Assembly: GCA_965231095.1 (NCBI GenBank)
Contig: OZ246416.1
Span: 343,277 to 407,276 of the forward strand
From: an uncultured Gammaproteobacteria bacterium
Lineage (GTDB): Bacteria; Patescibacteriota; Patescibacteriia; XYB2-FULL-38-15
Direction: 5' to 3'
Length of the DNA stretch: 64,000 bases
Shown here: positions 21,704 to 59,005 of the stretch, piece after piece
How the letters are laid out: every line of letters starts with the position of its first letter
Position numbering within the stretch: the first letter of the stretch is position 1
Program-made: the position numbers and the translations under genes
The notes under the pieces: generated by a model
Databases searched by the model: none
The model's input: only the letters and a program-made list of their open reading frames with translations
What the model was told of the DNA's origin: nothing

Positions 21704-22687
21704 CTAGCGGCGCTTGCCCTTGCCGCCCTTCTTGTCGCCGCCCTTGCCCTTGTGGCGGTTGGAGTCGTCACCGAACTGGAAGCGCACGCCGCGCTTCTCC
21801 ATCTCGGCCCTGTCGCGCGCCTGCTCGGCGGCGAGACGCTCCCGGCGCGCGTCGCGTCGCGCTTCCCGCTCGGCGCGGGAAAGCTTCAGCTTCGCCGGCT
21901 CGGCCACGGGGACGGCCACGACCGCCGGTTCGGGCTTCTTCGGGGGCGGGACGCTCTCTCCCGCCGCCTTCTTCTGCCGCCGTTCGGCTTCGAACGCGGC
22001 ACTGCGGTAGTAGTCAAAGGGGTTGACGTGCCGGAGCGCTCCGGCCTCGAGCAGGATCATGAACTGCTTCTGACAAATCCCCGCGACCTCGTACTTGCCC
22101 TCCGCGTTCTTCACGATCGCGAAGCGCGTGGCCAGACCCTCATTGCGGCAGAGCTTGCAGCCCGGCACCCCGCAGAGCACCTTGCCGCTCTCGTCGCGCC
22201 GCGCCTGGAGCGGCTCGGCCTTGGCGGCCACGACCGCCTTCCAGTAGTCCACGGCGGCCGCCTGGGCGTGGATCGCGGCGTTCCTCACGCCGACGATCCC
22301 GTAGAGCGCCCCGATCTTCATCAAACGGCGGCGCTCTTCGGGCGGCATCCGCTCCGCGCAGATGTTGCAGATCGGCTCGAAGCCCCAGAGCTTCAGCCGG
22401 TCCCGCACGACCTCGACCAGCAGGGCCAGCTTGATCTTCCCGACGCTGTTGCCGTCGGTGTGCCCGCACTTCGAGCACACCCTCTTCTTCGGCTTCGCGG
22501 GCTCGACGGCCACGACGATCGGGTCGACCGGCTTCTCCGGCTCGGCCGCGATCTCGGCCACGACCGCCTCCGCCACCTCCGTCTTCACGAAGGACGGCAT
22601 GGCGGCCGCGATCAGGGCTTCGTAGTCCTCGTCGGTCAGGGTGCCCATCGGCACCGGAACCAGGATCGCTTCCATCGTTTCCGCCAT
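21704..22687 (-). CDS. Hypothetical Cys-cluster protein encoded in a high-GC island (two CxxC...CxxC zinc-ribbon-like pairs; Ala/Glu/Arg-rich; K/G-rich basic C-terminal tail)
   Basis: 327 aa ORF with AAGGAG RBS 7 nt upstream of ATG; protein-like composition unlike the Arg-rich opposite-strand ORF; region roughly 70% GC. Confidence 0.6.
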   Translation of the reverse strand: MAETMEAILVPVPMGTLTDEDYEALIAAAMPSFVKTEVAEAVVAEIAAEPEKPVDPIVVAVEPAKPKKRVCSKCGHTDGNSVGKIKLALLVEVVRDRLKLWGFEPICNICAERMPPEERRRLMKIGALYGIVGVRNAAIHAQAAAVDYWKAVVAAKAEPLQARRDESGKVLCGVPGCKLCRNEGLATRFAIVKNAEGKYEVAGICQKQFMILLEAGALRHVNPFDYYRSAAFEAERRQKKAAGESVPPPKKPEPAVVAVPVAEPAKLKLSRAEREARRDARRERLAAEQARDRAEMEKRGVRFQFGDDSNRHKGKGGDKKGGKGKRR

Positions 22688-29845: not shown

Positions 29846-30391
29846 GTGACTAGAAAGAAGGATGCCGTGCGCTACTTGTTCATCCCGAGCTGCGAAGTGG
29901 CAACGAAAGATACGCTGGAGGGCACCACGACCGAAAAGCGTCTCATCCGCGGACTCGCGCTCTGGCAGAGCGGCAGGTTCGATGCGATCATCGTGACGGG
30001 CGGCGTCTATCTTCCGCCGGAACAGCAGACGCTCCCCTCGGGAATCCTGATGAGACAGTGGCTCGTCGAAAAGGGCGTCCCCGAGAAGGCGATCATCTGC
30101 GAAGATCGCTCGCGCGACACCTACGAGAACATCACCGGCGCCCTGACGCTCATCACCGACGACCCCGCGCCAGAGTTCACGGTCGTGACCCACTGGCAGC
30201 ACGCGCTGCGGTTTTGGGTGACCTTCCGCCTCGCGCACCGGCGCAAAATACGCCTCGTGCCGATGTGGTACTGGATCGGTCTCAAGGGTTTCGTGTTGGA
30301 GTGGGCGATGTTGCTCATCCACATCGTCGACCCGAGAGGAACCGGAAAAATCGCAACCCGGAATCGCGAAACGCGCAGCCAGAAGTCGTGA
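29846..30391 (+). CDS. DUF218 (YdcF/SanA/ElyC-like) domain protein encoded in a high-GC island; GTG start, TGA stop
   Basis: 181 aa; DAIIVTGG...LMRQWLVEKGVPEKAIICEDRSRDTYENI matches DUF218 core; region ~65% GC. Confidence 0.7.
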   Translation: MTRKKDAVRYLFIPSCEVATKDTLEGTTTEKRLIRGLALWQSGRFDAIIVTGGVYLPPEQQTLPSGILMRQWLVEKGVPEKAIICEDRSRDTYENITGALTLITDDPAPEFTVVTHWQHALRFWVTFRLAHRRKIRLVPMWYWIGLKGFVLEWAMLLIHIVDPRGTGKIATRNRETRSQKS

Positions 30392-40576: not shown

Positions 40577-43246
40577 CTATAACGATCTCTCCCCTGCCAT
40601 TGGCCCGGCCACACTCGTCGGCGTGCCAAGTTGCGTCCGCTCGGAAATTTCCGATTCCACGATTGTTTTGTCGCGGCCGTATTTTAATCTGGCAAGTTGC
40701 TTTAGGGCTTGCGCCAATTCTGTATCGCCTTTTTGCGGCGGAATGGTTTGCATATTAAACGCTTTTGAAGCGGCGTTATCAATCAAAAGTTTGATGTAGG
40801 CCGTATATTTTTCCACATTCAATAAATCATATTCATTAACCGTCGGGGCGAATTCTTTAGCGATTGTTTCGACGTCGTCCACGCCGATTCTGAAAGATAT
40901 CATTGTGCCGGCATTGCCGAAAACCGCGTCGCGAATTTTCGTATTATTATCTTTTACCAACTGCCCGACGTACTGATGGGCAATCGTAAGGCACAGCCGA
41001 TATTTTCTCGCTTCGGATAAAATCGTGGCAATACTGTCGGTAATGAAATTTTGAAACTCATCAATATAAAGATAAAAATCATGGCGCTCGGCCTCGGGAA
41101 GTTCGGCGCGGCTCATCGCGGCCATTTGTAATTTTGAAACAATAATCAAACCCAGAAGTTCGCTGTTCACTTCGCCGGTTTTTCCCTTGGCGAGATTCAC
41201 AAGCAAAATCTTTTTCTTATCCATTATTTCCCTAAAATCAAAACCCGAATGCGATTGGCCGATTATATTTCGCATCATTTCATTCTCCACAAACCGGCCG
41301 ACTTTGGAAATCAAATATCCCAACATTTCCGACTTATGAAAATCCGAAGTTTTGGCCATTTCTTTTTCCCAAAAAGCGCGAACCACCGGATCTTTAACGC
41401 GCGCCACCCATGATTTTTGAAAATCATTATCGGAAAACATCCTGGGAATCTCGGCGATCGTTCCGGGGTTCGCCAGATCCGACATCAAGGTCAACATCAC
41501 ATTTCTCATATTATGCTCAAACATCGGGCCAATCATTTCCGGCGGAAAAAGTTTGTAAAAAATCGCGATCATTTCTTGCACGGCAAAATCTTTTTGCGAT
41601 TCATCTTTTGCCTCAAGCATATTGAGGCCAATCGGCCGATCGGCGTCGGAGGGATCAAAAATAATCACATCGTCCAGCCGCTCTTTTGGCACGCCGGTTA
41701 AAATATCTTCAATCAAATCTCCATGCGGATCAACTACCGCGACGCCCTCACCATTTTGGATATCTTGCTTTACCATATTGGACAAAAGCACGGATTTACC
41801 AACACCGGATTTACCAATAACATAAACGTGGCGGCGGCGATCTTCGCGCTTGATTTTAACCATCACTTCTGTCCCGCGGAAAATAGATTTACCAAGCGTC
41901 AAGCCCTCTTTGGGCATATTAACCGGCGGCGCGGCTTTTTTCGCGAGGAGCCATTCAATATTGGGCGCTTCGGTCCAGGGCGACGGGAAATGAAACAGGC
42001 TCGCCATCTCTTCCGAATTTAAAACAACTTTTTTCTTTTCATGAAAACCGCGATGAATAAAATCTTTGATCAATTTTTTGAGAGGATGGCCGCCCGGCGA
42101 GGTGCGCGCAAAACTATTTCCGTATTGATAAATATTATATTGGGAAAAAGCATTGGTAATATTGTCCAAATTCATTTTTGCCCGCGCGAAATTTGGCGAA
42201 GAAGAAACAATTCTGATATTAACATCAACTCCGGCTTTGCTCGCCTTCTCTTCAAGTCCTTTAACCATTTCCTCTTCCATGGGAGAGAGGCGATATGGTT
42301 CCGGCGTGGATTTTACGATTTGGTCTTCGGGTTTTTTCTTTGCCCCGCCGGCAAACATTTTTCCAAACTCACCCAAAATTTTCATAAAAATATTTCCGCC
42401 AACTGACGACATCGCTTCACCGAGTTTTTTCCCTTGTTGCATTTCTTGGGCGATTTTAATTCCCGGACGCCGCCATTCTTTTCGCGCGCTACGCAGAACA
42501 AACTGAATCGCCGCGCCTTCATTTTTTTCCAATTTTGACAAAACATTTGTCAGAGCGTTCATCGGATCCGTTTCCATTTTTTTATAAGTTTTTATCGGAA
42601 AAAAATGAGGACGTTTAAAAGTTAAATAAGCGCCACGGATATCTCCGGTCGGCGTGAAAATATTGTAATCTTTAACTTCTTCAATAAAAGCTTCGTGATA
42701 GTTCGCCCGAATTTGCTGTTCAACATATTCTTGCAGATGTTTTGGCACAGCAACATAAAAAGAAATCAAACCCTTGTCGGCGATAATTTCAAAAGAAAGA
42801 TAGTCCGTCCGGCCGGTAAGCCAAGCGCTAATTCCCTTTTGCGCCTTGAGCCCGCCGATTGACGCGAAAAGCGCTTCGGCCGTAGCCACTCCTTCTTGAA
42901 TGGTTTGAACGGTAATTTCCCTTTTTTCCTGCGCCTGCGCTCGATCCGCCGATTCTTTGGGCACTGTCACGAGCAAAACAATATTTTTAAAAGAAGTGGA
43001 CATCTTTGTCCTGTGATGCAGGAATCTTCTGGTAAACAAAATTAAAAACCACAATCCCAAAAAAATCGTGGCTAAAGTAAAAATCATTATTCCGATCGGG
43101 CTCTCTGCAAAAATTCCGACTTCCGGGGGAATCTCCGCGGTCGGCAGGGCAATTTGATAAAGAGAAAAAACAAAAATCGCGCCGAGCGCGGTCCCGGGAA
43201 TCCATCCTCTTATTCTATGCCAAATTTTTTTCTCTACATCCTCCAT
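40577..43246 (-). CDS. VirD4/TraG/TraD-like (type IV secretion coupling-protein-type, DUF87/HerA-like) P-loop ATPase with N-terminal TM segments
   Basis: 889 aa; Walker A YVIGKSGVGKSV, VDPHGDL, Walker B FYLYIDEFQNF; two N-terminal TM helices. Confidence 0.7.
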   Translation of the reverse strand: MEDVEKKIWHRIRGWIPGTALGAIFVFSLYQIALPTAEIPPEVGIFAESPIGIMIFTLATIFLGLWFLILFTRRFLHHRTKMSTSFKNIVLLVTVPKESADRAQAQEKREITVQTIQEGVATAEALFASIGGLKAQKGISAWLTGRTDYLSFEIIADKGLISFYVAVPKHLQEYVEQQIRANYHEAFIEEVKDYNIFTPTGDIRGAYLTFKRPHFFPIKTYKKMETDPMNALTNVLSKLEKNEGAAIQFVLRSARKEWRRPGIKIAQEMQQGKKLGEAMSSVGGNIFMKILGEFGKMFAGGAKKKPEDQIVKSTPEPYRLSPMEEEMVKGLEEKASKAGVDVNIRIVSSSPNFARAKMNLDNITNAFSQYNIYQYGNSFARTSPGGHPLKKLIKDFIHRGFHEKKKVVLNSEEMASLFHFPSPWTEAPNIEWLLAKKAAPPVNMPKEGLTLGKSIFRGTEVMVKIKREDRRRHVYVIGKSGVGKSVLLSNMVKQDIQNGEGVAVVDPHGDLIEDILTGVPKERLDDVIIFDPSDADRPIGLNMLEAKDESQKDFAVQEMIAIFYKLFPPEMIGPMFEHNMRNVMLTLMSDLANPGTIAEIPRMFSDNDFQKSWVARVKDPVVRAFWEKEMAKTSDFHKSEMLGYLISKVGRFVENEMMRNIIGQSHSGFDFREIMDKKKILLVNLAKGKTGEVNSELLGLIIVSKLQMAAMSRAELPEAERHDFYLYIDEFQNFITDSIATILSEARKYRLCLTIAHQYVGQLVKDNNTKIRDAVFGNAGTMISFRIGVDDVETIAKEFAPTVNEYDLLNVEKYTAYIKLLIDNAASKAFNMQTIPPQKGDTELAQALKQLARLKYGRDKTIVESEISERTQLGTPTSVAGPMAGERSL

Positions 43247-46290: not shown

Positions 46291-48189
46291 TTACTGCGCC
46301 CGCAAACCCGTATCGGAATACGTACCGGCCCCGCCGCAAAAAACTTTCGCTTCACTGCCGCCGTAGTCCGCAATCAATCTTCCCTCGTTTGCCGCGCCGT
46401 CATTGCATCTGTAAATAATATGTATCCCAGCGGGAGCGGGACAATTTGTTCCATCCTGCAAGCAAATATTTCTCCCCAAAACCGTGGCGTTTCCATTAAC
46501 GCTCAATACCCCGGTGACATTTAAGTCATCCTGAACCTGGACAACCGTTCCTACATATGGAGCCATGAGCACTAAATTTCCCGGACTGATAACCCCGGCG
46601 GAGTTGGTATCCAAAATACCGTTGACTCCGTCATGCCGCAGTCTGATATTTTTCTGATTGCCCGGATCCGCCGCGGAAATCCAACTTCCGGAAATTGTGT
46701 TAATTCCTCCCGTCCCTGTCATTTGTCCTTCAATAAAAAATGCACTATTCAAATAAACCCTCGCCATCGCGTCTTGCCACTGTAAATATTTACTCCCGTC
46801 GTCAAAATAAATATAATCGTCATTCCCTACTGCGCCCATTCCGATTCTCAAATTACCGCCGACCGTGAGAACATCTGCCGCTTTATCATATGTTAACCCG
46901 GCATCGCCGCCAAAAGTTCCTACATCGTTAAATTGAATTTGTCCATTCACTCCGCCAGGCGCCGCGCCAGCCGGCCAAGCTCCAATGCAATTTCCTTGTA
47001 TACAAAGTTGCTCAGCGTTTAGTGTGCCGGGTCCCCTGTACGCACCCACCGCCGCGCCCACCACTCCGGCATCAACATAGACTCCCTTGCCCCCAATAAA
47101 ATATCCTGACCAAGCAGCGGCATCGGTGACAGTGGAATAGACTCCATAACCCGATCCTTGCGCTTTGAAATAGCCTCCATAATTTTTTCCCGGCGAACCT
47201 CCGCCTGCGGCCATAACTCCAATATTGTTATCGCCCCCCATAACAATCGCCGCGTTGCCGGCAAAAAATTGACCGCCTTTATTAAGCCCGATCAATGACG
47301 TCGCCGTACCGGAAACCGCCATGCTGCTTTCTCCGTTTGAAAGCCCGTAAACCCCAAAGCTCGCGTCGCCGTTCGTTATCCCATAGACACCAACTCCTCC
47401 CAAAGCTTCTGATTGAAAAAATCCGCCCGCGTCGCCGGAACTTATTCCTTGTATCGCCGGCGTTAAATTTGTGTTCGCGTTAATTTGCCCGGCCACATCA
47501 AGTTTATAAGCCGGATCCACTCCGATGCCGACATTTCCTCCGCTTGTCAGAATTAATCTGTTGTCAGTTCTCCAAAAACGAAGCTGATCCGTAGCGGCAT
47601 CGCGATAAATCGCCCAATGAGTGTCCATGGCCGGACTGCCAAAATCCAATTCCGGATTACTGCCGGGAACTGGCAGGAGATAAATTCTTGGTGCGACCCC
47701 GCCAACCATTAAATTAAAAGCTGTATTGGTTGTCCCAACTCCTACATTTCCCGCGGCGCCGATTTGTATCCGCCCGATGCCATTAGTTTCCAAAGACAGC
47801 GGCACATTATCATTTGTCCCCAAAACCGCCGTCGGACCAAATCCAACATTTCCTTCATCAACAAAAGCGCTGACTGCTTCCGGCCAATTAACGCGGCAAT
47901 TTCCCTGAATGCAAAGTTGCTCGGCATTCAGCGTTCCCAACCCCATATTTCCTCCCGCGGGCGCGCCAACAATTTGCCCGCCTCCCACGGAAAAATTTCC
48001 CCCAACTGTTAAATCGCCGGTTTTACTCTGCGCTCCGGCGCCAACATTAATCGGAGCCGGAACATTATCTCCCGGCGGAAGAGCCCCGGGTTCGGTCCAA
48101 GCGATTGCTGAGGCATAACGCAAACCAAAACCGCTCGCGATACTAAAAATTACAAGCACAAGTGAGATGAAAAAAAGTCTTTGACGCAT
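46291..48189 (-). CDS. Large secreted Gly/Ala/Asn-rich protein with an internal repeat (GTLNAEQLCIQGNC occurs twice); fibre/adhesin-like
   Basis: 632 aa; N-terminal signal/TM; repeats GLGTLNAEQLCIQGNCRVNWPE / GPGTLNAEQLCIQGNCIGAWPAG. Confidence 0.5.
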   Translation of the reverse strand: MRQRLFFISLVLVIFSIASGFGLRYASAIAWTEPGALPPGDNVPAPINVGAGAQSKTGDLTVGGNFSVGGGQIVGAPAGGNMGLGTLNAEQLCIQGNCRVNWPEAVSAFVDEGNVGFGPTAVLGTNDNVPLSLETNGIGRIQIGAAGNVGVGTTNTAFNLMVGGVAPRIYLLPVPGSNPELDFGSPAMDTHWAIYRDAATDQLRFWRTDNRLILTSGGNVGIGVDPAYKLDVAGQINANTNLTPAIQGISSGDAGGFFQSEALGGVGVYGITNGDASFGVYGLSNGESSMAVSGTATSLIGLNKGGQFFAGNAAIVMGGDNNIGVMAAGGGSPGKNYGGYFKAQGSGYGVYSTVTDAAAWSGYFIGGKGVYVDAGVVGAAVGAYRGPGTLNAEQLCIQGNCIGAWPAGAAPGGVNGQIQFNDVGTFGGDAGLTYDKAADVLTVGGNLRIGMGAVGNDDYIYFDDGSKYLQWQDAMARVYLNSAFFIEGQMTGTGGINTISGSWISAADPGNQKNIRLRHDGVNGILDTNSAGVISPGNLVLMAPYVGTVVQVQDDLNVTGVLSVNGNATVLGRNICLQDGTNCPAPAGIHIIYRCNDGAANEGRLIADYGGSEAKVFCGGAGTYSDTGLRAQ

Positions 48190-48277: not shown

Positions 48278-48316
48278 AATAAAAAAACGCCGGACAAAAG
48301 CACAAGTGTCCGGCGT
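48278..48316 (-). terminator. Intrinsic terminator of the GC-rich LysM gene (acgccggaca...tgtccggcgt + T8 on minus strand)
   Basis: 10-bp perfect stem and T-run read directly. Confidence 0.6.
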
Positions 48317-48360
48317 AGAAAAAACAACCAAGAAAAATCCTCCCAAAAATATCGCCGAAT

Positions 48361-50334
48361 TTATTCGGGCTTCGGCAAACCCGTATCGTGTGTGGCGTGT
48401 TCCCAGGCGTATTCTTCGGCCGAAACAGCCCGCCTGCACACGCTGCAGTAGAACTCGCTCTCTTCGTGCGAGGGCTCGGCGGCGACCGGAATATGCGGTC
48501 CGGTTTCGTGAGAGACATCCGCACTCGCCGGGGGTGGCGGCGCGCACGACCCAAGATGCGCTTCCCGAGACGCGAGGGGAACTTCTTCTCCGTCTGGCCG
48601 CACGCACGTTTTCGAACCGGGGATTTCTTCCCTCGCGCCGATGCCGTGCGCCACGGCCCGATGTTCGTCCAGCTTGTCGAACGAAACCTCGTGTCCGCAG
48701 TCGGGACAGAGAACCTTGGTCACCCCCATCACTGGTTCCGAACCGGGCGGATCGATACCTGTCATGTCGCTCGGATCGTCTGGGGGCGGAGGGAGCCTTC
48801 TTGTTTCTCCTTCGTCGTCCGCCTCACGGGACAGATCTCTGTGCCGTTCTTCTCGGTCATCCAGCCCACGCGCTCGATCTTCGAGTTCCTGTCGCGCTTC
48901 AGCGGTGAATCGCTCGAATTCGGCTTGCCTCCTCCGAAGATCATCCTCGGCTCTGGCGAGCCTTTCTTCCACCGCTCTCACGTCCCGCTCGCGCCCGGCA
49001 AGAACTGCCGAATGGTCTGTCACTTCGCCTTCCCGCCGAGTAACTTCGTCCTCTCTGGCCTTGAGTTGACGCCTCTGCTCCTCAAGAGCAGGGACGTCTT
49101 CGTCAAGGCAACGCATGGCTCCTTCCACTGCGCCGCGCTGCTTGGCAAACTCGGCCTGTTCGGTGCGAAACTGCGCGGAAGTTTGGTCTAGAATTTCACG
49201 GAGACTGGCAAGCCTTCTCTCCTTCTCTTCCTGAGTTGCCGCTTGCCCCTCAAGCCTTGCTTGCGTGCCGTTCAGTTCACCGCGAAGTCGCCCGAGGCGT
49301 TCGTCTTCCTCACGGACATGCGTTGAAAAAGCCTTGGTGCGTCCCAGAAGTTGGTGCTCCGCTTCCTTGATCTCGCCCTCGCGGCGAGTGCAAGTCGCTT
49401 CCCGATCGGCCACAGCCCTCTTTGCCGCATCCAGATCGGCCTCGCCCTGCTTCTGCGTCGCCTCGCGCGCTGCCAGATCCTTCTCCTGTTTGTCCTGCTC
49501 GGCCTTCTCTTTGCCGAGCTTGGTCCCGAGATCGTCCTGCTCGCGCGCTTGCCGGTCGAGTTTCTTCTCCCACAGGTCCAGCTCCGCGCCGCGCTTCTTG
49601 TTCTTCTCGGCCTGCGCGATGAGGCCCGGATGGACAACCTGCACGAGATGATTGAACTTCTTGCCCTTGCGGTACGAGACGAACACGATGGCCAAAACCG
49701 CGACGAACGCGGTAAGCGCAACGGCCAAGACGATGTGGGTGGCGTTCGTCGCCCGAACTTCCACCTGCTTCGGCTGATGGGAAAGCACGGTTTCCAGATT
49801 GGACTGGAGTTCGTCGTGCTGGCCACTGGCCTCCGCCCTTGCCGCGACAAGACCCTTGTTCTCATCTCGCAAATCGTCGAGTTCGGAAATGAGATCGTCG
49901 CGCTCTTGCCGCACTTCGACGAGGTCGGATTTCTCCGCCTCGTACTTCTCTTCCAGCTCGGCCATTTCGGCTCGAAGCGCCTCAAGCTCAGTACGCAACG
50001 CGCCATTCTCGGCCTGGATCAAAATCCGCGGCTCGGGAACGATGAGTGTCTTGCCGGCGATGAGGTAAACCCTCGGCCGGCCGCAAACAAACCGAATCGT
50101 TCCGTCTCGAAGCTCAATCTTCTGCGGCCTGTCGCAAGCAATGCCGTAGGCCGAGCGCGGATTGGCCGCCAGGAGCTCTTCTCCTGTCAGACCGTACCGC
50201 GCCGCTACCCGCTCCAGTCGATCTCCCGGCTGGACCGTGTAGGTTCCGGGCTCACTGGCCGAACCTTCCGCCGAAGCGGAAGCCGCCCGAACGAACCCGA
50301 GCGCCAGAGCGAAAAGAACAACTACCTTTTTCAT
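48361..50334 (-). CDS. GC-rich island protein: signal peptide - LysM domain - coiled coil - TM helix - long Glu/Arg/Ala coiled coil - two C-terminal C2H2-type zinc fingers
   Basis: 657 aa; LysM YTVQPGDRLERVAARYGLTGEELLAANP; TM HIVLAVALTAFVAVLAIVFVSY; CPDCGHEVSFDKLDEHRAVAH and CSVCRRAVSAEEYAWEHATH (C-x2-C-x12-H-x3/4-H); GGGAGGG RBS; ~62-65% GC. Confidence 0.65.
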   Translation of the reverse strand: MKKVVVLFALALGFVRAASASAEGSASEPGTYTVQPGDRLERVAARYGLTGEELLAANPRSAYGIACDRPQKIELRDGTIRFVCGRPRVYLIAGKTLIVPEPRILIQAENGALRTELEALRAEMAELEEKYEAEKSDLVEVRQERDDLISELDDLRDENKGLVAARAEASGQHDELQSNLETVLSHQPKQVEVRATNATHIVLAVALTAFVAVLAIVFVSYRKGKKFNHLVQVVHPGLIAQAEKNKKRGAELDLWEKKLDRQAREQDDLGTKLGKEKAEQDKQEKDLAAREATQKQGEADLDAAKRAVADREATCTRREGEIKEAEHQLLGRTKAFSTHVREEDERLGRLRGELNGTQARLEGQAATQEEKERRLASLREILDQTSAQFRTEQAEFAKQRGAVEGAMRCLDEDVPALEEQRRQLKAREDEVTRREGEVTDHSAVLAGRERDVRAVEERLARAEDDLRRRQAEFERFTAEARQELEDRARGLDDREERHRDLSREADDEGETRRLPPPPDDPSDMTGIDPPGSEPVMGVTKVLCPDCGHEVSFDKLDEHRAVAHGIGAREEIPGSKTCVRPDGEEVPLASREAHLGSCAPPPPASADVSHETGPHIPVAAEPSHEESEFYCSVCRRAVSAEEYAWEHATHDTGLPKPE

Positions 50335-50416
50335 TTTTCCCTCCCTTGACCCCTTGGGCCAAGAAGTCGGTTATAAAGGAACAAAGCCCAACCCATCATT
50401 GGGTAAGCCTCCGTAT

Positions 50417-50445
50417 ATTTAAATCGTTTTCTCTGATTTTGTCAA
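50417..50445 (-). promoter_or_regulatory. Candidate promoter on minus strand (TTGACA-17-TTAAAT) for the LysM/ZnF gene
   Basis: Hexamers read on reverse complement. Confidence 0.45.
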
Positions 50446-50446
50446 C

Positions 50447-50480
50447 CCCAAAAACAAAAATCGCCGCCAAACCAAGCGGC
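50447..50480 (-). terminator. dnaJ intrinsic terminator (gccgc...gcggc hairpin + TTTTTGTTTTTGGGG on minus strand)
   Basis: Stem-loop and T-run read directly. Confidence 0.5.
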
Positions 50481-50509
50481 AATTTTTAAAATTTTAAAAT
50501 ACCAAAAAC

Positions 50510-51586
50510 TTAACTCTTATCCAATTCTTCCAATAATTCTTTTTGCCGACGGGAAAGATTGGTCGGCGTCATAACAATAACTTCCACCAGTTGATCCCCG
50601 CGGCCGTAACTATTTAAATGCGGCACGCCTTTTCCTTTCAAACGGAAAATCTGTCCCGACTGCGTTCCCTCCGGAATGGTTAATTTTATTTTTCCATCCA
50701 AAGTTTCTATTTCAATTTTTTCACCCAGCGCCGCCTGACTAAAATTTATTTCCACCCGACTTAAAATATCATCTTTCTTTCTTTTAAATTCTTTATCCGG
50801 CGCGATACTCATTGTCACAAATAAATCTCCTGCCTTTCCGCCGTGTTCGGCTGCCTCCCCTTCTCCGGAAATTTTTATCGTCTCGCCGTCATCAATCCCG
50901 GCCGGAATTTTTATTTTCAATTTTTGGCTGTCGCGGGTAACGCCTTTGCCGCGGCAAACTGAACATTCTTTTTCCGGAATTTTTCCCGCCCCGCCGCACT
51001 TACTGCAAGTCGCAACTGTTTGAATATTTCCTAAAAATGTTCGCTGGAGAACTTGCACCCGACCCGATCCGCCGCAATTTACGCAAGAGACAACTTTACT
51101 TTTGGGATCCGCGCCGCTTCCCCCGCAATTTTTACAAACGGAGGGCTTATACATTTCTAAAACTTTTTCCGTGCCAAAAATTGCTTCGCGAAAATCAATC
51201 CTCATTTCAACTTCAATATCCCGGCCGCGGGAGGCGCGCGATTTTTTTCTTCCGCCGCCAAAAACATCGCCAAATCCAAACATCTCTCCCAAATCTCCCA
51301 TATCAAAACCATTAGCAAAACCGGAAAAATCCCTGAAGCCCTCAAAACCAGAAAAACCACCTTGACCCTGAGCGTTTTCAAAGGTGGTTCCGAATTGGTC
51401 GTACTGTTGGCGTTTCTCCGGATTTCCCAAAACTTGGTAGGCCTCGTTGATTTCTTTAAACTGATCCGCGTTCCCGCCATTTTTATCCGGATGATATTTG
51501 TGCGCCAACTCGCGGAAGGCTTTTTTAATTTCTTCCGCTGACGCAGTTTTCGAAACGCCTAAAATTTTATAATAATCTTTTGCCAT
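50510..51586 (-). CDS. dnaJ: Molecular chaperone DnaJ (start placed at MAKDYYKILGV with AAGGAAA RBS; ORF track extends to 51709)
   Basis: J-domain HPD motif (KYHPDKN), G/F-rich linker, four CxxCxGxG zinc repeats. Confidence 0.9.
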   Translation of the reverse strand: MAKDYYKILGVSKTASAEEIKKAFRELAHKYHPDKNGGNADQFKEINEAYQVLGNPEKRQQYDQFGTTFENAQGQGGFSGFEGFRDFSGFANGFDMGDLGEMFGFGDVFGGGRKKSRASRGRDIEVEMRIDFREAIFGTEKVLEMYKPSVCKNCGGSGADPKSKVVSCVNCGGSGRVQVLQRTFLGNIQTVATCSKCGGAGKIPEKECSVCRGKGVTRDSQKLKIKIPAGIDDGETIKISGEGEAAEHGGKAGDLFVTMSIAPDKEFKRKKDDILSRVEINFSQAALGEKIEIETLDGKIKLTIPEGTQSGQIFRLKGKGVPHLNSYGRGDQLVEVIVMTPTNLSRRQKELLEELDKS

Positions 51587-56406: not shown

Positions 56407-57099
56407 TTATATTTTATTTAACAAATCTTTCACTTCGCGGATAAGGGCGATGTTTTTTCCGTAATCCATCCGGATCGGTCCCAAAACCGCAACAAGTCCA
56501 GTCTTTTTATTTTTTCCGCGGTATTTGCTGACGACCGCGCCGCAACTTTCGCTGAACGGATTTTTCTTGCCGATTAAAACTTTTATTTCCTCTTTTGTCT
56601 CTTCAAAAATCTCATTTATAATTTCGTCCAAATGATCAACGACTTCGCCGATCCGATAAACCAAATCCTGGTCGTGGAATTCCGGCTTGGCAAAAAGATT
56701 GGAAAGTCCGGTGTAATAAACATCATTTTTCCCGAAAGCCAAAATCACGGCTTCCTCAGTTAGTTCGGCCAGAACTTTAGCCAAACTTTTTTCCGGATAT
56801 TCCGTTGCCCGCGCCGCCCGTTCCAGTTCTTTTTTTTCTTTTCCCGCGGCTTCCAGTTTTCCTTCCGGCAAATTGGCCAGATAAAAATTAAAACCTGCCT
56901 CGGTCGGAATCCGGCCGGCGGAAGTGTGCGGCTGAACAAGATATCCTTCTTCTTCCAAATCCGCCATCTCATTTCGTAATGTTGCCGAACTTATTTTAAA
57001 ACCGCCCCGTCCGGCCAACATTTTTGAAGCAACCGGCGTGGCTTTTTTTATATATTCGTGGATAACCGACAAGAGCAATTTTTCCTTTCGTTTTTCCAT
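56407..57099 (-). CDS. hrcA: Heat-inducible transcription repressor HrcA (short form)
   Basis: 230 aa; N-terminal winged-helix region LLSVIHEYIKKATPVASKML...SSATLRNEMADLEEEGYL. Confidence 0.85.
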   Translation of the reverse strand: MEKRKEKLLLSVIHEYIKKATPVASKMLAGRGGFKISSATLRNEMADLEEEGYLVQPHTSAGRIPTEAGFNFYLANLPEGKLEAAGKEKKELERAARATEYPEKSLAKVLAELTEEAVILAFGKNDVYYTGLSNLFAKPEFHDQDLVYRIGEVVDHLDEIINEIFEETKEEIKVLIGKKNPFSESCGAVVSKYRGKNKKTGLVAVLGPIRMDYGKNIALIREVKDLLNKI

Positions 57100-57119: not shown

Positions 57120-57146
57120 TTAGCAATCGGCGTCAAGGACTGCTAA
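57120..57146 (-). promoter_or_regulatory. CIRCE operator (TTAGCAATC-N9-GACTGCTAA) upstream of hrcA-grpE
   Basis: Matches CIRCE consensus TTAGCACTC-N9-GAGTGCTAA at 15/18 positions; ~25-50 nt upstream of hrcA start. Confidence 0.7.
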
Positions 57147-57852: not shown

Positions 57853-58089
57853 TAGAAGTTTATGTAAATCTACGTATCCGGCCGGAGCAACGGATATTTT
57901 TATTAAAATTATTTATTTATCTAGTTTAAAAACCTTTACTTCTAACGGGGTTAATAACTGCCAACGAAATTTTATTCGCCCGCGGCTCTAAAATTTCGGG
58001 CCAGTTAATAAAAGAGCGCCGTGACGAATGAATCGTCACGGCGCCGTATCGCGACTTCCTCGCGCGGAGGATTTCCGCACTTGGAAGTA

Positions 58090-58800
58090 CTGATCGAATT
58101 GCGGACACCGCAGAGCGAACGGGGTTGATGCGGGTATCTAATCCGCTCCCGACGCCCGGAACCGTGCTGGCGCCTTGCAGCCCAGATCGATCACGGTTGT
58201 GTCCGCCGTCCACTTGGAGAAAATCCTGGCCTCGAGCTTAGGGTCTTCGGATTTCCACCAAGTGTGCGCCCTCGCCGTGGCGCGCCCGAACCGCCGTAGC
58301 GGTTGGACTTGGGTAAGTAACGCGGGGGCCCCGCGCGTTCTCCCCATACGGCGACTTCATTGCAGTCAGCACAGAGCCTGTGGCCAAAAGCCCGAACCAT
58401 GCTCTCCTTGCTGCTGCAACGTTCCCGCGCCGGGCTCTATCCCTAACCCTTCCAGGGCATAGGCGGATGTCGCGGCAGCACCCCCTTGGGTGGCCCGCTC
58501 GTCCGAGAGCCGGTGGCGCAGGTTGCGCGGCGGTCGAAGGACGGACGGAGGAAGATCGGGGCCGCTGGCGCCGACTCTGTCCATGCGTCCCCATCGAACC
58601 GACCGCGACTTCGTACCGCGCCGAAGCGCGATGTTTTTTGGAGCCCGGCGGCGGCATCTGATCCTGAGGGACCGCCGCCGGGCAAGGAAGGAGGCACACC
58701 GTCGGGTCCGGACTTTCCGGAACAAGAGGTCGCTACGCACCTCCGTGGACGGTGTGGCTGCGGCAGATGGGGCACGGGACGATCCCTGCCGCAACTTTAT
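58090..58800 (-). ncRNA. rnpB: GC-rich structured RNA, probable RNase P RNA (rnpB) with expansion segments; boundaries approximate
   Basis: Minus strand carries GGAAAGUCCGG (P4 5' strand, plus 58709-58719), then AAGGGUUAGGG, GCAAGGCG and CACGGUUCCGGGCGUCGGG segments in the same order as bacterial RNase P CR-I to CR-IV; no plausible ORF; adjacent to tRNAs. Confidence 0.4.
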
Positions 58801-58833
58801 GCCAACGCGAGCTTGCGCTCGCGGAAGCTTCGG

Positions 58834-58904
58834 AGCGGGTGAGAGGACTTGAACCTCCAACCTGCGGACTGAGATCCGCCGTTCAACCATTGAACTTCAC
58901 CCGC
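58834..58904 (-). tRNA. tRNA of uncertain identity (GCGGG acceptor, U73; anticodon arm gcgga-ucucag-uccgc has a non-canonical 6-nt loop)
   Basis: Hand-folded: acceptor gcgggtg/cacccgc, D arm gttc-aatggtt-gaac, T arm ggagg-ttcaagt-cctct. Confidence 0.55.
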
Positions 58905-58931: not shown

Positions 58932-59005
58932 CGGGACTGGGAGGGATTGAACCTCCGACCTGCGGATATTGAAAATCCGCTGCTCTACCACTGAGCTACA
59001 GTCCT
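58932..59005 (-). tRNA. tRNA with anticodon UCA (Trp-like loop UUUCAAU, discriminator G): would decode UGA
   Basis: Hand-folded: acceptor gggactg/cagtccc, D arm gctc-agtggta-gagc, anticodon stem cggat/atccg, loop tttcaat (anticodon = plus 58970-58972 tga), T arm ggagg-ttcaatc-cctcc. Confidence 0.6.

Follow-up and report, generated by a model that had tools for sequence, protein, structure and literature searches.

A Patescibacteria LysM protein with a predicted zinc-finger tail: a possible wall-to-cytoplasm scaffold encoded by an unusually GC-rich gene

What could a bacterial protein do that carries a LysM domain at one end, candidate zinc fingers at the other and a membrane helix in between? 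This question is raised by a minus-strand gene of contig OZ246416.1, located in a stretch of 64,000 nucleotides (nt) that we analyzed as a whole and refer to as the window. The gene is a real one, belonging to an uncultured, ultra-small Patescibacteria bacterium, and it encodes a product of 657 amino acids (aa), just as an earlier interpretation made without database searches (hereafter, the sequence-only reading) had stated. The coordinates of its coding sequence (CDS) and of all the associated features are collected in Table 1. The minus-strand frame is the coding one, because the differences from the orthologue at locus L005 amount to 0.22, 0.19 and 0.38 at codon positions 1, 2 and 3, respectively. 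The long open reading frames (ORFs) on the opposite strand are explained by the composition of this sequence, which is rich in guanine and cytosine (GC). The reading that we favour, with a probability of about 45%, is that the protein is a peptidoglycan-anchored scaffold that spans the envelope and ends in a protein-docking zinc-finger tail.

The predicted domain order is a signal peptide, a LysM domain with a two-cysteine insertion, an external coiled coil of 80 residues, a transmembrane (TM) helix, a cytoplasmic coiled coil of about 270 residues and a tail with zinc sites. Just two segments stand out as hydrophobic in the hydropathy analysis (aa 3-22 and aa 195-223). The ASASA motif of the signal peptide is kept across the family alignment, and the peptide is presumably cleaved. 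The TM helix is directly trailed by the residues RKGKK (net charge +4) and, because of this flank, the positive-inside rule puts the C-terminus in the cytoplasm and leaves the LysM domain, with the external coiled coil, on the outer side. The order and topology suggested by the sequence-only reading (LysM outside, one TM helix, second coiled coil and zinc sites inside) are thus supported by Pfam, hydropathy and a full-length AlphaFold2 model, which was based on an 11-sequence alignment and has a mean predicted local distance difference test score (pLDDT) of 69.

The LysM domain (PF01476) was matched at aa 32-69 with 25.2 bits (E=1.6e-5), above the Pfam gathering score of 20.9 bits. The match covers only model positions 1-33 of 43, because an insertion sits before the last strand. 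In the AlphaFold2 model (pLDDT 75-84) this region consists of a strand (aa 30-33), two helices (aa 40-46 and 51-57), inserted hairpins (aa 63-91) and a final strand (aa 96-99), so that the predicted fold is the beta-alpha-alpha-beta fold of LysM domains. The insertion, a beta-hairpin insert of about 25 residues, carries C67 and C84, both nearly invariant in the family, and their conservation fits a putative extracytoplasmic disulfide. Judging from sequence, the domain would bind peptidoglycan.

On the other side of the membrane, the rod is predicted to consist of two long helices (aa 236-363 and 368-505; pLDDT ~74-90) with a break at aa 364-367. A motif formed by V403, R408, E412, D413 and P415 is shared by the entire aligned family, distant members included. 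The rod is followed by the tail. Of the 10 cysteines of the protein, five join with five histidines to make up two complete zinc sites and a partial one within its last 120 residues. The sequence-only reading had described two C2H2 sites. Both are indeed complete, but the spacing that it gave for each is off by one (x2/x11/x4 and x2/x12/x2 are the correct ones), and a third, degenerate unit with just three obvious ligands has to be added between them. The first finger, which shows sub-threshold matches to zf-Di19 and zf_UBZ, occurs in roughly half of the 11 aligned sequences, and the degenerate unit is kept in P0001-P0004, P0019 and P0020. In the terminal finger, Y629, C630, C633, Y642, H646, A647 and H649 are invariant across the 11 aligned sequences. 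In P0012, a more distant member, the second cysteine of this finger is replaced by histidine; since one ligand is swapped for another, the substitution supports a metal site. Position 623, seven residues ahead of C630, is occupied by histidine in some members and by cysteine in others, and could provide an extra ligand. The invariant ligands and this swap suggest, indirectly, that the fingers would bind one zinc ion each.

The tail units share with classical C2H2 fingers (including the UBZ, Di19 and TRAF types) the Cys-x2-Cys pair followed by His...His, a hydrophobic core in register and a predicted beta-beta-alpha fold. They differ in their spacings (x11/x4 and x12/x2 against C-x2-4-C-x12-H-x3-5-H) and in being single, acidic and devoid of TGEKP-type linkers. 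AlphaFold2 predicted three beta-beta-alpha units in the tail (pLDDT 59-89), but a Foldseek search of the tail model against the PDB returned nothing at E<=0.001. The top rows of that search were Cep104, TRAF6 and Rad18 UBZ, all of them protein-binding finger arrays. For the window protein, the best Pfam matches of the tail were zf-Di19 (19.8 bits against a cut-off of 27.5) and zf_UBZ (19.0 against 25.6). The P0005 orthologue reached 22.9 bits against 21.2 with zf-met over the whole sequence, yet no single stretch passes. Tails of the family match many C2H2-clan Pfam models weakly, and seven out of ten match zf_UBZ, which is a protein-binding finger. A profile of ten tails compared with PDB sequences hit mostly classical DNA-binding C2H2 proteins, with a best E-value of 0.018; its sole match to a Mycobacterium tuberculosis membrane protein was 3hug_B (E=0.047). 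The zinc-binding anti-sigma motif H-x3-C-x2-C is incomplete in the window protein, as H593-x3-C597 is not followed by C-x2-C. These comparisons point to C2H2-like fingers at the level of the clan; a specific family, or the 'eukaryote-like' status proposed earlier, is not demonstrable, as every C2H2 Pfam model stayed below its threshold for the window protein.

Table 1. Features of the LysM gene, its product and its immediate surroundings (window coordinates)
Feature	Position	Strand	Basis
CDS of the 657-aa LysM/coiled-coil/TM/coiled-coil/zinc-finger protein	48361..50334	-	ORF, Pfam, homologues, AlphaFold2, hydropathy
Predicted signal peptide, aa 1-22 (MKK, hydrophobic core, ASASA)	50269..50334	-	Hydropathy peak at aa 3-22
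Extracytoplasmic LysM domain, aa 30-100	50035..50247	-	Pfam, AlphaFold2, conservation
External coiled-coil stalk, aa 103-184	49783..50028	-	AlphaFold2 single helix, block pLDDT ~67-87
Transmembrane helix, aa 199-222	49669..49740	-	Hydropathy maximum 3.13 at aa 201
Cytoplasmic coiled-coil rod, aa 236-505	48820..49629	-	AlphaFold2
Predicted zinc finger 1, aa 540-563, C543-x2-C546-x11-H558-x4-H563	48646..48717	-	Beta-beta-alpha, pLDDT 85-89
Degenerate finger-like unit, aa 576-597, C577...H593-x3-C597	48544..48609	-	Beta-beta-alpha-like at aa 576-594, pLDDT 64-72
Predicted terminal zinc finger, aa 623-649, C630-x2-C633-x12-H646-x2-H649	48388..48468	-	Beta-beta-alpha at aa 627-645, pLDDT 59-75
dnaJ intrinsic terminator, between the gene and the upstream heat-shock operon	50455..50488	-	14 pairs and T-run, conserved in orthologous upstream regions
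Promoter-like TTGACA-17-TTAAAT	50417..50445	-	Read from sequence
Structured 5' leader, ~80 nt, two hairpins	50335..50413	-	DNA conservation, consensus folds
Intrinsic terminator, perfect 10-bp stem, 10-nt loop, T-run	48281..48316	-	Read from sequence
Downstream neighbour, secreted 632-aa fibre-like Gly-rich protein (context gene only)	46291..48189	-	Adjacency in nine loci

The tail is strongly acidic. Residues 506-657 have a net charge of -19 and an isoelectric point (pI) of 4.64, and the cytoplasmic domain as a whole has a net charge of -25 and a pI of 5.2. In each of the 11 aligned members, the final ~100-180 residues are likewise acidic (pI 4.2-5.4, net charge -5 to -16). Glu and Asp abound at exposed positions of the finger helices, and the fingers themselves are single units, far apart, joined by long proline-rich linkers that are modeled with low confidence. 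Conserved short motifs occur in these linkers, such as ETGPxIPxA directly ahead of the terminal finger. The number of fingers varies from one to four across orthologues, many of which have an extra C2HC unit with the exact classical core spacing (C-x2-C-x3-F-x5-F-x2-H-x3-C) that the window protein lacks. Because the tail is acidic and its fingers are single, spaced by long linkers and variable in number, we interpret it as a protein-docking module and not as a nucleic-acid-binding array.

The proposed scaffold would work as follows. After removal of the signal peptide, the protein would be a type I bitopic scaffold whose LysM domain binds the cell's own peptidoglycan at the tip of an external coiled-coil stalk of about 12 nm. 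A single helix would pass through the membrane and, inside the cell, the rod of ~270 residues would bear the acidic, proline-rich tail with its short conserved motifs and one to four C2H2-like fingers. By docking one or more cytoplasmic proteins, the tail would hold these partners at a place defined by the wall, following the logic of HubP/FimV. The conservation of the gene's separate promoter and leader, and its presence at one and the same locus in nine genomes, fit a cellular component that is inherited vertically.

A number of points weigh against the scaffold. Its coiled coils and tail evolve fast, which is odd for a scaffold with fixed partners: whole-protein identity among orthologues is 35-63%, compared with 66-95% for the products of neighbouring genes. 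The role as a scaffold is a proposal, and the partner protein is putative. The finger folds were predicted from shallow alignments of 10-11 sequences and have the wide range of pLDDT given above, no C2H2 Pfam model reached its gathering score for the window protein, and the H-x2-H of the terminal finger is tighter than the classical spacing, so the true ligand set may differ. Finally, acidic fingers do not strictly exclude contacts with RNA or DNA through other parts of the protein.

The closest architectural parallel is provided by the polar hub proteins HubP/FimV/TspA of Gammaproteobacteria, which combine an N-terminal periplasmic LysM domain and a single TM segment with a long cytoplasmic region, acidic in character, for the recruitment of other proteins (PMC12918733). 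The combination found here is unusual, as the sequence-only reading had noted; the contention that it resembles no characterized protein is weakened by these hubs, with which it shares the extracytoplasmic LysM, the TM helix and the acidic cytoplasmic region (PMC12918733). Since the C-terminal FimV domain was not matched (neither Pfam nor NCBIfam gave a FimV match, and the FimV/TPR domain is missing), we did not file the protein as a member of that group. It also differs in that its TM helix is flanked by coiled-coil rods outside and inside and that zinc fingers form its end, and its host is a wall-bearing Patescibacterium and not a diderm; a sequence relationship beyond LysM was not detected. 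The plan of a bitopic positioning protein is likewise known from ZitP (Caulobacter) and MapZ (Streptococcus), one-pass proteins with an extracytoplasmic domain on one side and a protein-recruiting module in the cytoplasm. In ZitP the module is a zinc finger that binds PopZ, and in MapZ the outer domain binds peptidoglycan. Unlike the window protein, they have the N-terminus inside, other domains and no long coiled coils, and no similarity to them was detected in the searches run. A wall-side domain, a coiled coil and a TM anchor are also combined in the 'SH3 domain plus anchor' (YgiM-like) family TIGR04211, which matches aa 107-222 weakly (E=5e-4, 19.7 bits against a 65-bit cut-off), but YgiM-like proteins stop at the anchor and have no cytoplasmic domain.

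How widely is this protein distributed? Among 5.8 billion clusters, a word-indexed search picked out 11 relatives that are full-length or nearly so; all the named ones come from Patescibacteria, one of them from Candidatus Falkowbacteria. An exhaustive HMMER search of 1.84 billion representatives gave 20 proteins at E<=1e-30, and the same architecture is present in about 16 of them and in a few weaker matches. Beneath the family, the HMMER matches are unrelated multi-LysM proteins. It is a small Patescibacteria-only family, judged from these sequence searches, without description beyond the automatic label 'LysM domain-containing protein'. Only three further loci came from scanning GTDB genomes and JGI metagenomes, with a reach that was limited by narrow search patterns. 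With the four-finger tail of P0004 as a query, only fragments of the same family were recovered, so that this search showed the tail module in no other architecture. A distant member, P0096, is encoded in a 65% GC contig and is directly followed by a paralogue that shares its N-terminal LysM start (L015, 1138-2937 and 3311-5365); GC-rich lineages with duplicated copies of the family gene thus exist. Matches of the window protein to SMC and CRWN proteins reflect coiled-coil composition, and an assignment to phage or defence functions was rejected, the PHROG and PADLOC matches (tape measure, endolysin, JetC, LeoC) covering only coiled-coil or LysM stretches.

We compared ten loci, namely that of the window and L001, L002, L005, L007, L008, L010, L013, L015 and L019. 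At nine of them, the family gene follows dnaJ either directly or within two genes, as part of a region with the hrcA-grpE-hsp20-dnaK-dnaJ cluster where this is visible. At the same nine loci, its 3' neighbour codes for a secreted protein of ~630-900 aa without significant Pfam match, followed by cysS if the contig reaches that far. L015 is the exception, where the distant homologue adjoins its paralogue.

The constant company of the secreted neighbour suggests the main alternative, to which we assign a minor share of the probability: the LysM protein may serve as an anchor or assembly factor for the fibre-like protein, its stalk or LysM domain holding the fibre at the wall and its cytoplasmic part coupling export or placement. 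The two genes adjoin in all nine loci, even in L013, which is the most distant of those with synteny. In the window, the neighbour has a signal peptide and a PHROG tail-fibre match (E=2.6e-9), contains the motif GTLNAEQLCIQGNC twice and shows a very weak Mtd-domain match (E=0.14); no significant Pfam match and no NCBIfam match were found for it. However, a strong terminator lies between the genes, so that co-transcription is not obvious, the large cytoplasmic part is left unexplained and contact between the two proteins is purely putative. A role of this kind would be compatible with the scaffold model and is not opposed to it.

Less probable is a membrane-tethered one-component regulator, as the sequence-only reading had proposed, in which LysM would sense wall fragments and the fingers would bind DNA or RNA, either in place or after proteolytic release. 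The topology suits outside-to-inside signalling, C2H2-like fingers frequently bind nucleic acids, and the PDB profile matches are mostly to DNA-binding C2H2 proteins, though all at E>=0.018. Against it stand the acidity of the tail in every aligned member, the Glu/Asp-rich finger helices, the single, distant fingers of variable number and the rigid rod of ~270 residues that separates them from the membrane. Pfam and NCBIfam scans gave no ROS_MUCR, helix-turn-helix or winged-helix match, and no signalling output domain was found in the protein. Ros/MucR proteins do have a single zinc site of the C2H2 type in a bacterial protein, but they are small, basic, soluble DNA binders, whereas the present tail is acidic and membrane-tethered. 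Nucleic-acid binding, as originally suggested, is therefore disfavoured by the charge of the tail and by the arrangement of its fingers.

About equally improbable, in our estimate, is a component of the heat-shock or envelope-stress response tied to DnaK/DnaJ, the tail of which would recruit chaperones or their clients to the membrane. Such a role would agree with the position of the gene, which at nine of the ten loci immediately follows dnaK-dnaJ or is at most two genes away from dnaJ, and with a conserved structured leader that overlaps the ribosome-binding site. Nevertheless, fixed neighbours in small syntenic genomes are a weak sign of shared function, and the dnaJ terminator and a separate promoter are located upstream of the gene. 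In addition, the sole match in the window to the controlling inverted repeat of chaperone expression (CIRCE) is upstream of hrcA, and direct control of the LysM gene by HrcA was rejected. This CIRCE-like repeat (57120-57146, plus strand, 2 mismatches) is positioned ~20 nt upstream of a 230-aa ORF (56407-57099) that is probably hrcA by synteny, and is the expected operator of the heat-shock cluster. A regulation by temperature was not apparent either: in none of seven leaders did the computed accessibility of the ribosome-binding site rise between 10 and 45 C, and an RNA thermometer was accordingly dropped, the unpaired probability being flat over this range.

The expression signals that the sequence-only reading had listed (promoter, GGGAGGG ribosome-binding site and a terminator with a 10-bp stem) are all present and, with the dnaJ terminator upstream, they make the gene a transcription unit of its own. 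TTGACA is invariant and TTAAnTATA conserved in five genomes, and both are also present in L008 and L010. The promoter was left unscored by a consensus scan because its -10 hexamer has T at position 2, and the 3' terminator was missed because the scan takes only loops of 3-8 nt. At the DNA level, the leader is more conserved than the coding region, with matching stretches in L001, L002, L005, L007, L008 and L010. The 3' arm of its second hairpin enters the ribosome-binding site (50345-50339). Consensus folds show compensatory changes in 5 of 30 pairs for five sequences and in 2 of 19 for seven, the minimum free energies range from -31 to -42 kcal/mol, and in L007 a 22-nt insertion falls inside the first hairpin. 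No Rfam family matched the leader even at E<=10, and it is possibly an undescribed cis-acting RNA element. A 22-codon upstream ORF that we had read by eye in the leader (its stop overlapping the start as ATGA) was abandoned in favour of RNA structure because L007 has ATA in place of its ATG and the reading frame is not kept from one genome to the next. A perfect 15-nt complementarity between dnaJ (50650-50664) and the codons of finger 1 (48696-48710) is absent from five other loci and was attributed to chance.

The second question posed by the locus is why the gene is so rich in GC. The sequence-only reading had called it a GC-rich island. The anomaly is real, as the CDS has 61.4% GC and a GC content at third codon positions (GC3) of 0.669, against 0.43-0.47 in neighbouring genes; what does not hold is the island, since the shift begins and stops exactly at the CDS borders and is common to eight of nine same-locus genomes. 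Codon choice differs from that of the neighbours (AAG for 81% against 15% of Lys, GAC for 59% against 28% of Asp), and so do the amino acids: the LysM protein has 10.3% Arg and 4.9% Lys, whereas the neighbours use Lys about twice as often as Arg (269 against 138 codons). In the same-locus orthologues L001, L002, L005, L007, L008, L010 and L019, GC3 is 0.60-0.66 compared with 0.29-0.56 in their neighbours. The most distant syntenic orthologue, L013, has a normal GC3 (0.45) and a Glu/Lys-rich rod.

A recently acquired foreign gene from a phage or mobile-element island is very improbable: GC3 (0.67 against ~0.44), the lysine codons and the distant homologue in a 65% GC contig would be in its favour, but related genomes have this locus, promoter and leader in common, identities rank as those of neighbouring genes do, the PHROG matches are coiled-coil and LysM noise, and no flanking direct repeats, tandem repeats, integrase or tRNA were found at the gene. 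Because the locus is shared by nine genomes and the GC shift by eight of them, a recent insertion is contradicted. The four-fold sites of the gene are about as diverged as those of its neighbours, or more so. GC richness is an old, conserved property of this gene. It is possible that the ancestor of the clade exchanged its copy for that of a GC-rich relative, with slow amelioration ever since. There remains a second explanation, namely a gene-specific pressure that keeps the sequence GC-rich.

Another gene of the window bears on this choice. A 327-aa ORF (21704-22687, minus strand) has a GC3 of 0.93 in a genome of 43% GC. Its product contains CxxC motifs and a very basic Gly/Lys/Arg tail, and has no Pfam, NCBIfam or PHROG match. 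Orthologues in other Patescibacteria contigs (L016, 6001-6933, and L017, 6001-6924) occupy the same place between lepA and recJ, with GC3 values of 0.93-0.94 against 0.36-0.53 in neighbouring genes. The three proteins are 62-67% identical and their shared four-fold sites 74-77% identical, compared with 43-45% at saturation. For the flanking housekeeping genes, protein identity is 83-94% and four-fold-site identity 41-57%. Changes at third positions of this ORF thus seem confined to exchanges between G and C, which favours gene-specific pressure. Separately, the window includes a DUF218 gene (29846-30391; Pfam E=4.7e-19), one of its few plus-strand genes, with a GC content of 0.61 and a GC3 of 0.82.

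A bolder two-part proposal, which we consider doubtful, would be that Patescibacteria have a lineage-specific class of genes whose GC richness is actively maintained at fixed loci, by pressure at the nucleotide level, in genomes of ~43-48% GC, and, separately, that the LysM protein is an undescribed hub connecting peptidoglycan with the cytoplasm through acidic zinc fingers. Candidates for such a pressure include strong biased gene conversion, translational control through codon bias and resistance of the mRNA to an AU-directed nuclease. In any case, a compositional 'island' in these genomes need not mean recent horizontal transfer.

The window has several other features. Nearly all the long ORFs across positions 1-64000 are on the minus strand and the GC skew is negative throughout; the window probably sits inside one replichore with a strong gene-strand bias. 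A few genes away from the LysM gene, an 889-aa VirD4/TraG-like coupling protein is encoded (40577-43246, minus strand) that is syntenic and 88-91% identical in related genomes. A stretch of ~800 nt with 63% GC (58020-58830, minus strand) lacks a convincing ORF, and there is a terminator-like hairpin at its end. The stretch includes GGAAAGTCCGGAC (58706-58718), which we take to resemble the conserved core of RNase P RNA, although no Rfam match was obtained even at E<=1. Two tRNA genes (58834-58904 and 58932-59005) are located just upstream of this stretch; one tRNA is 74 nt long with the anticodon UCA, which would read UGA, and the other has a 6-nt anticodon loop.

Patescibacteria make up a large share of bacterial diversity and yet, to our knowledge, almost nothing is known about how the envelope and the interior of their tiny cells are organized. 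A conserved protein that would lead from the wall to a cytoplasmic docking tail offers a concrete handle on this organization. It would also add to the bacterial uses of C2H2-like fingers, beyond Ros/MucR, one that is membrane-tethered and probably protein-binding.

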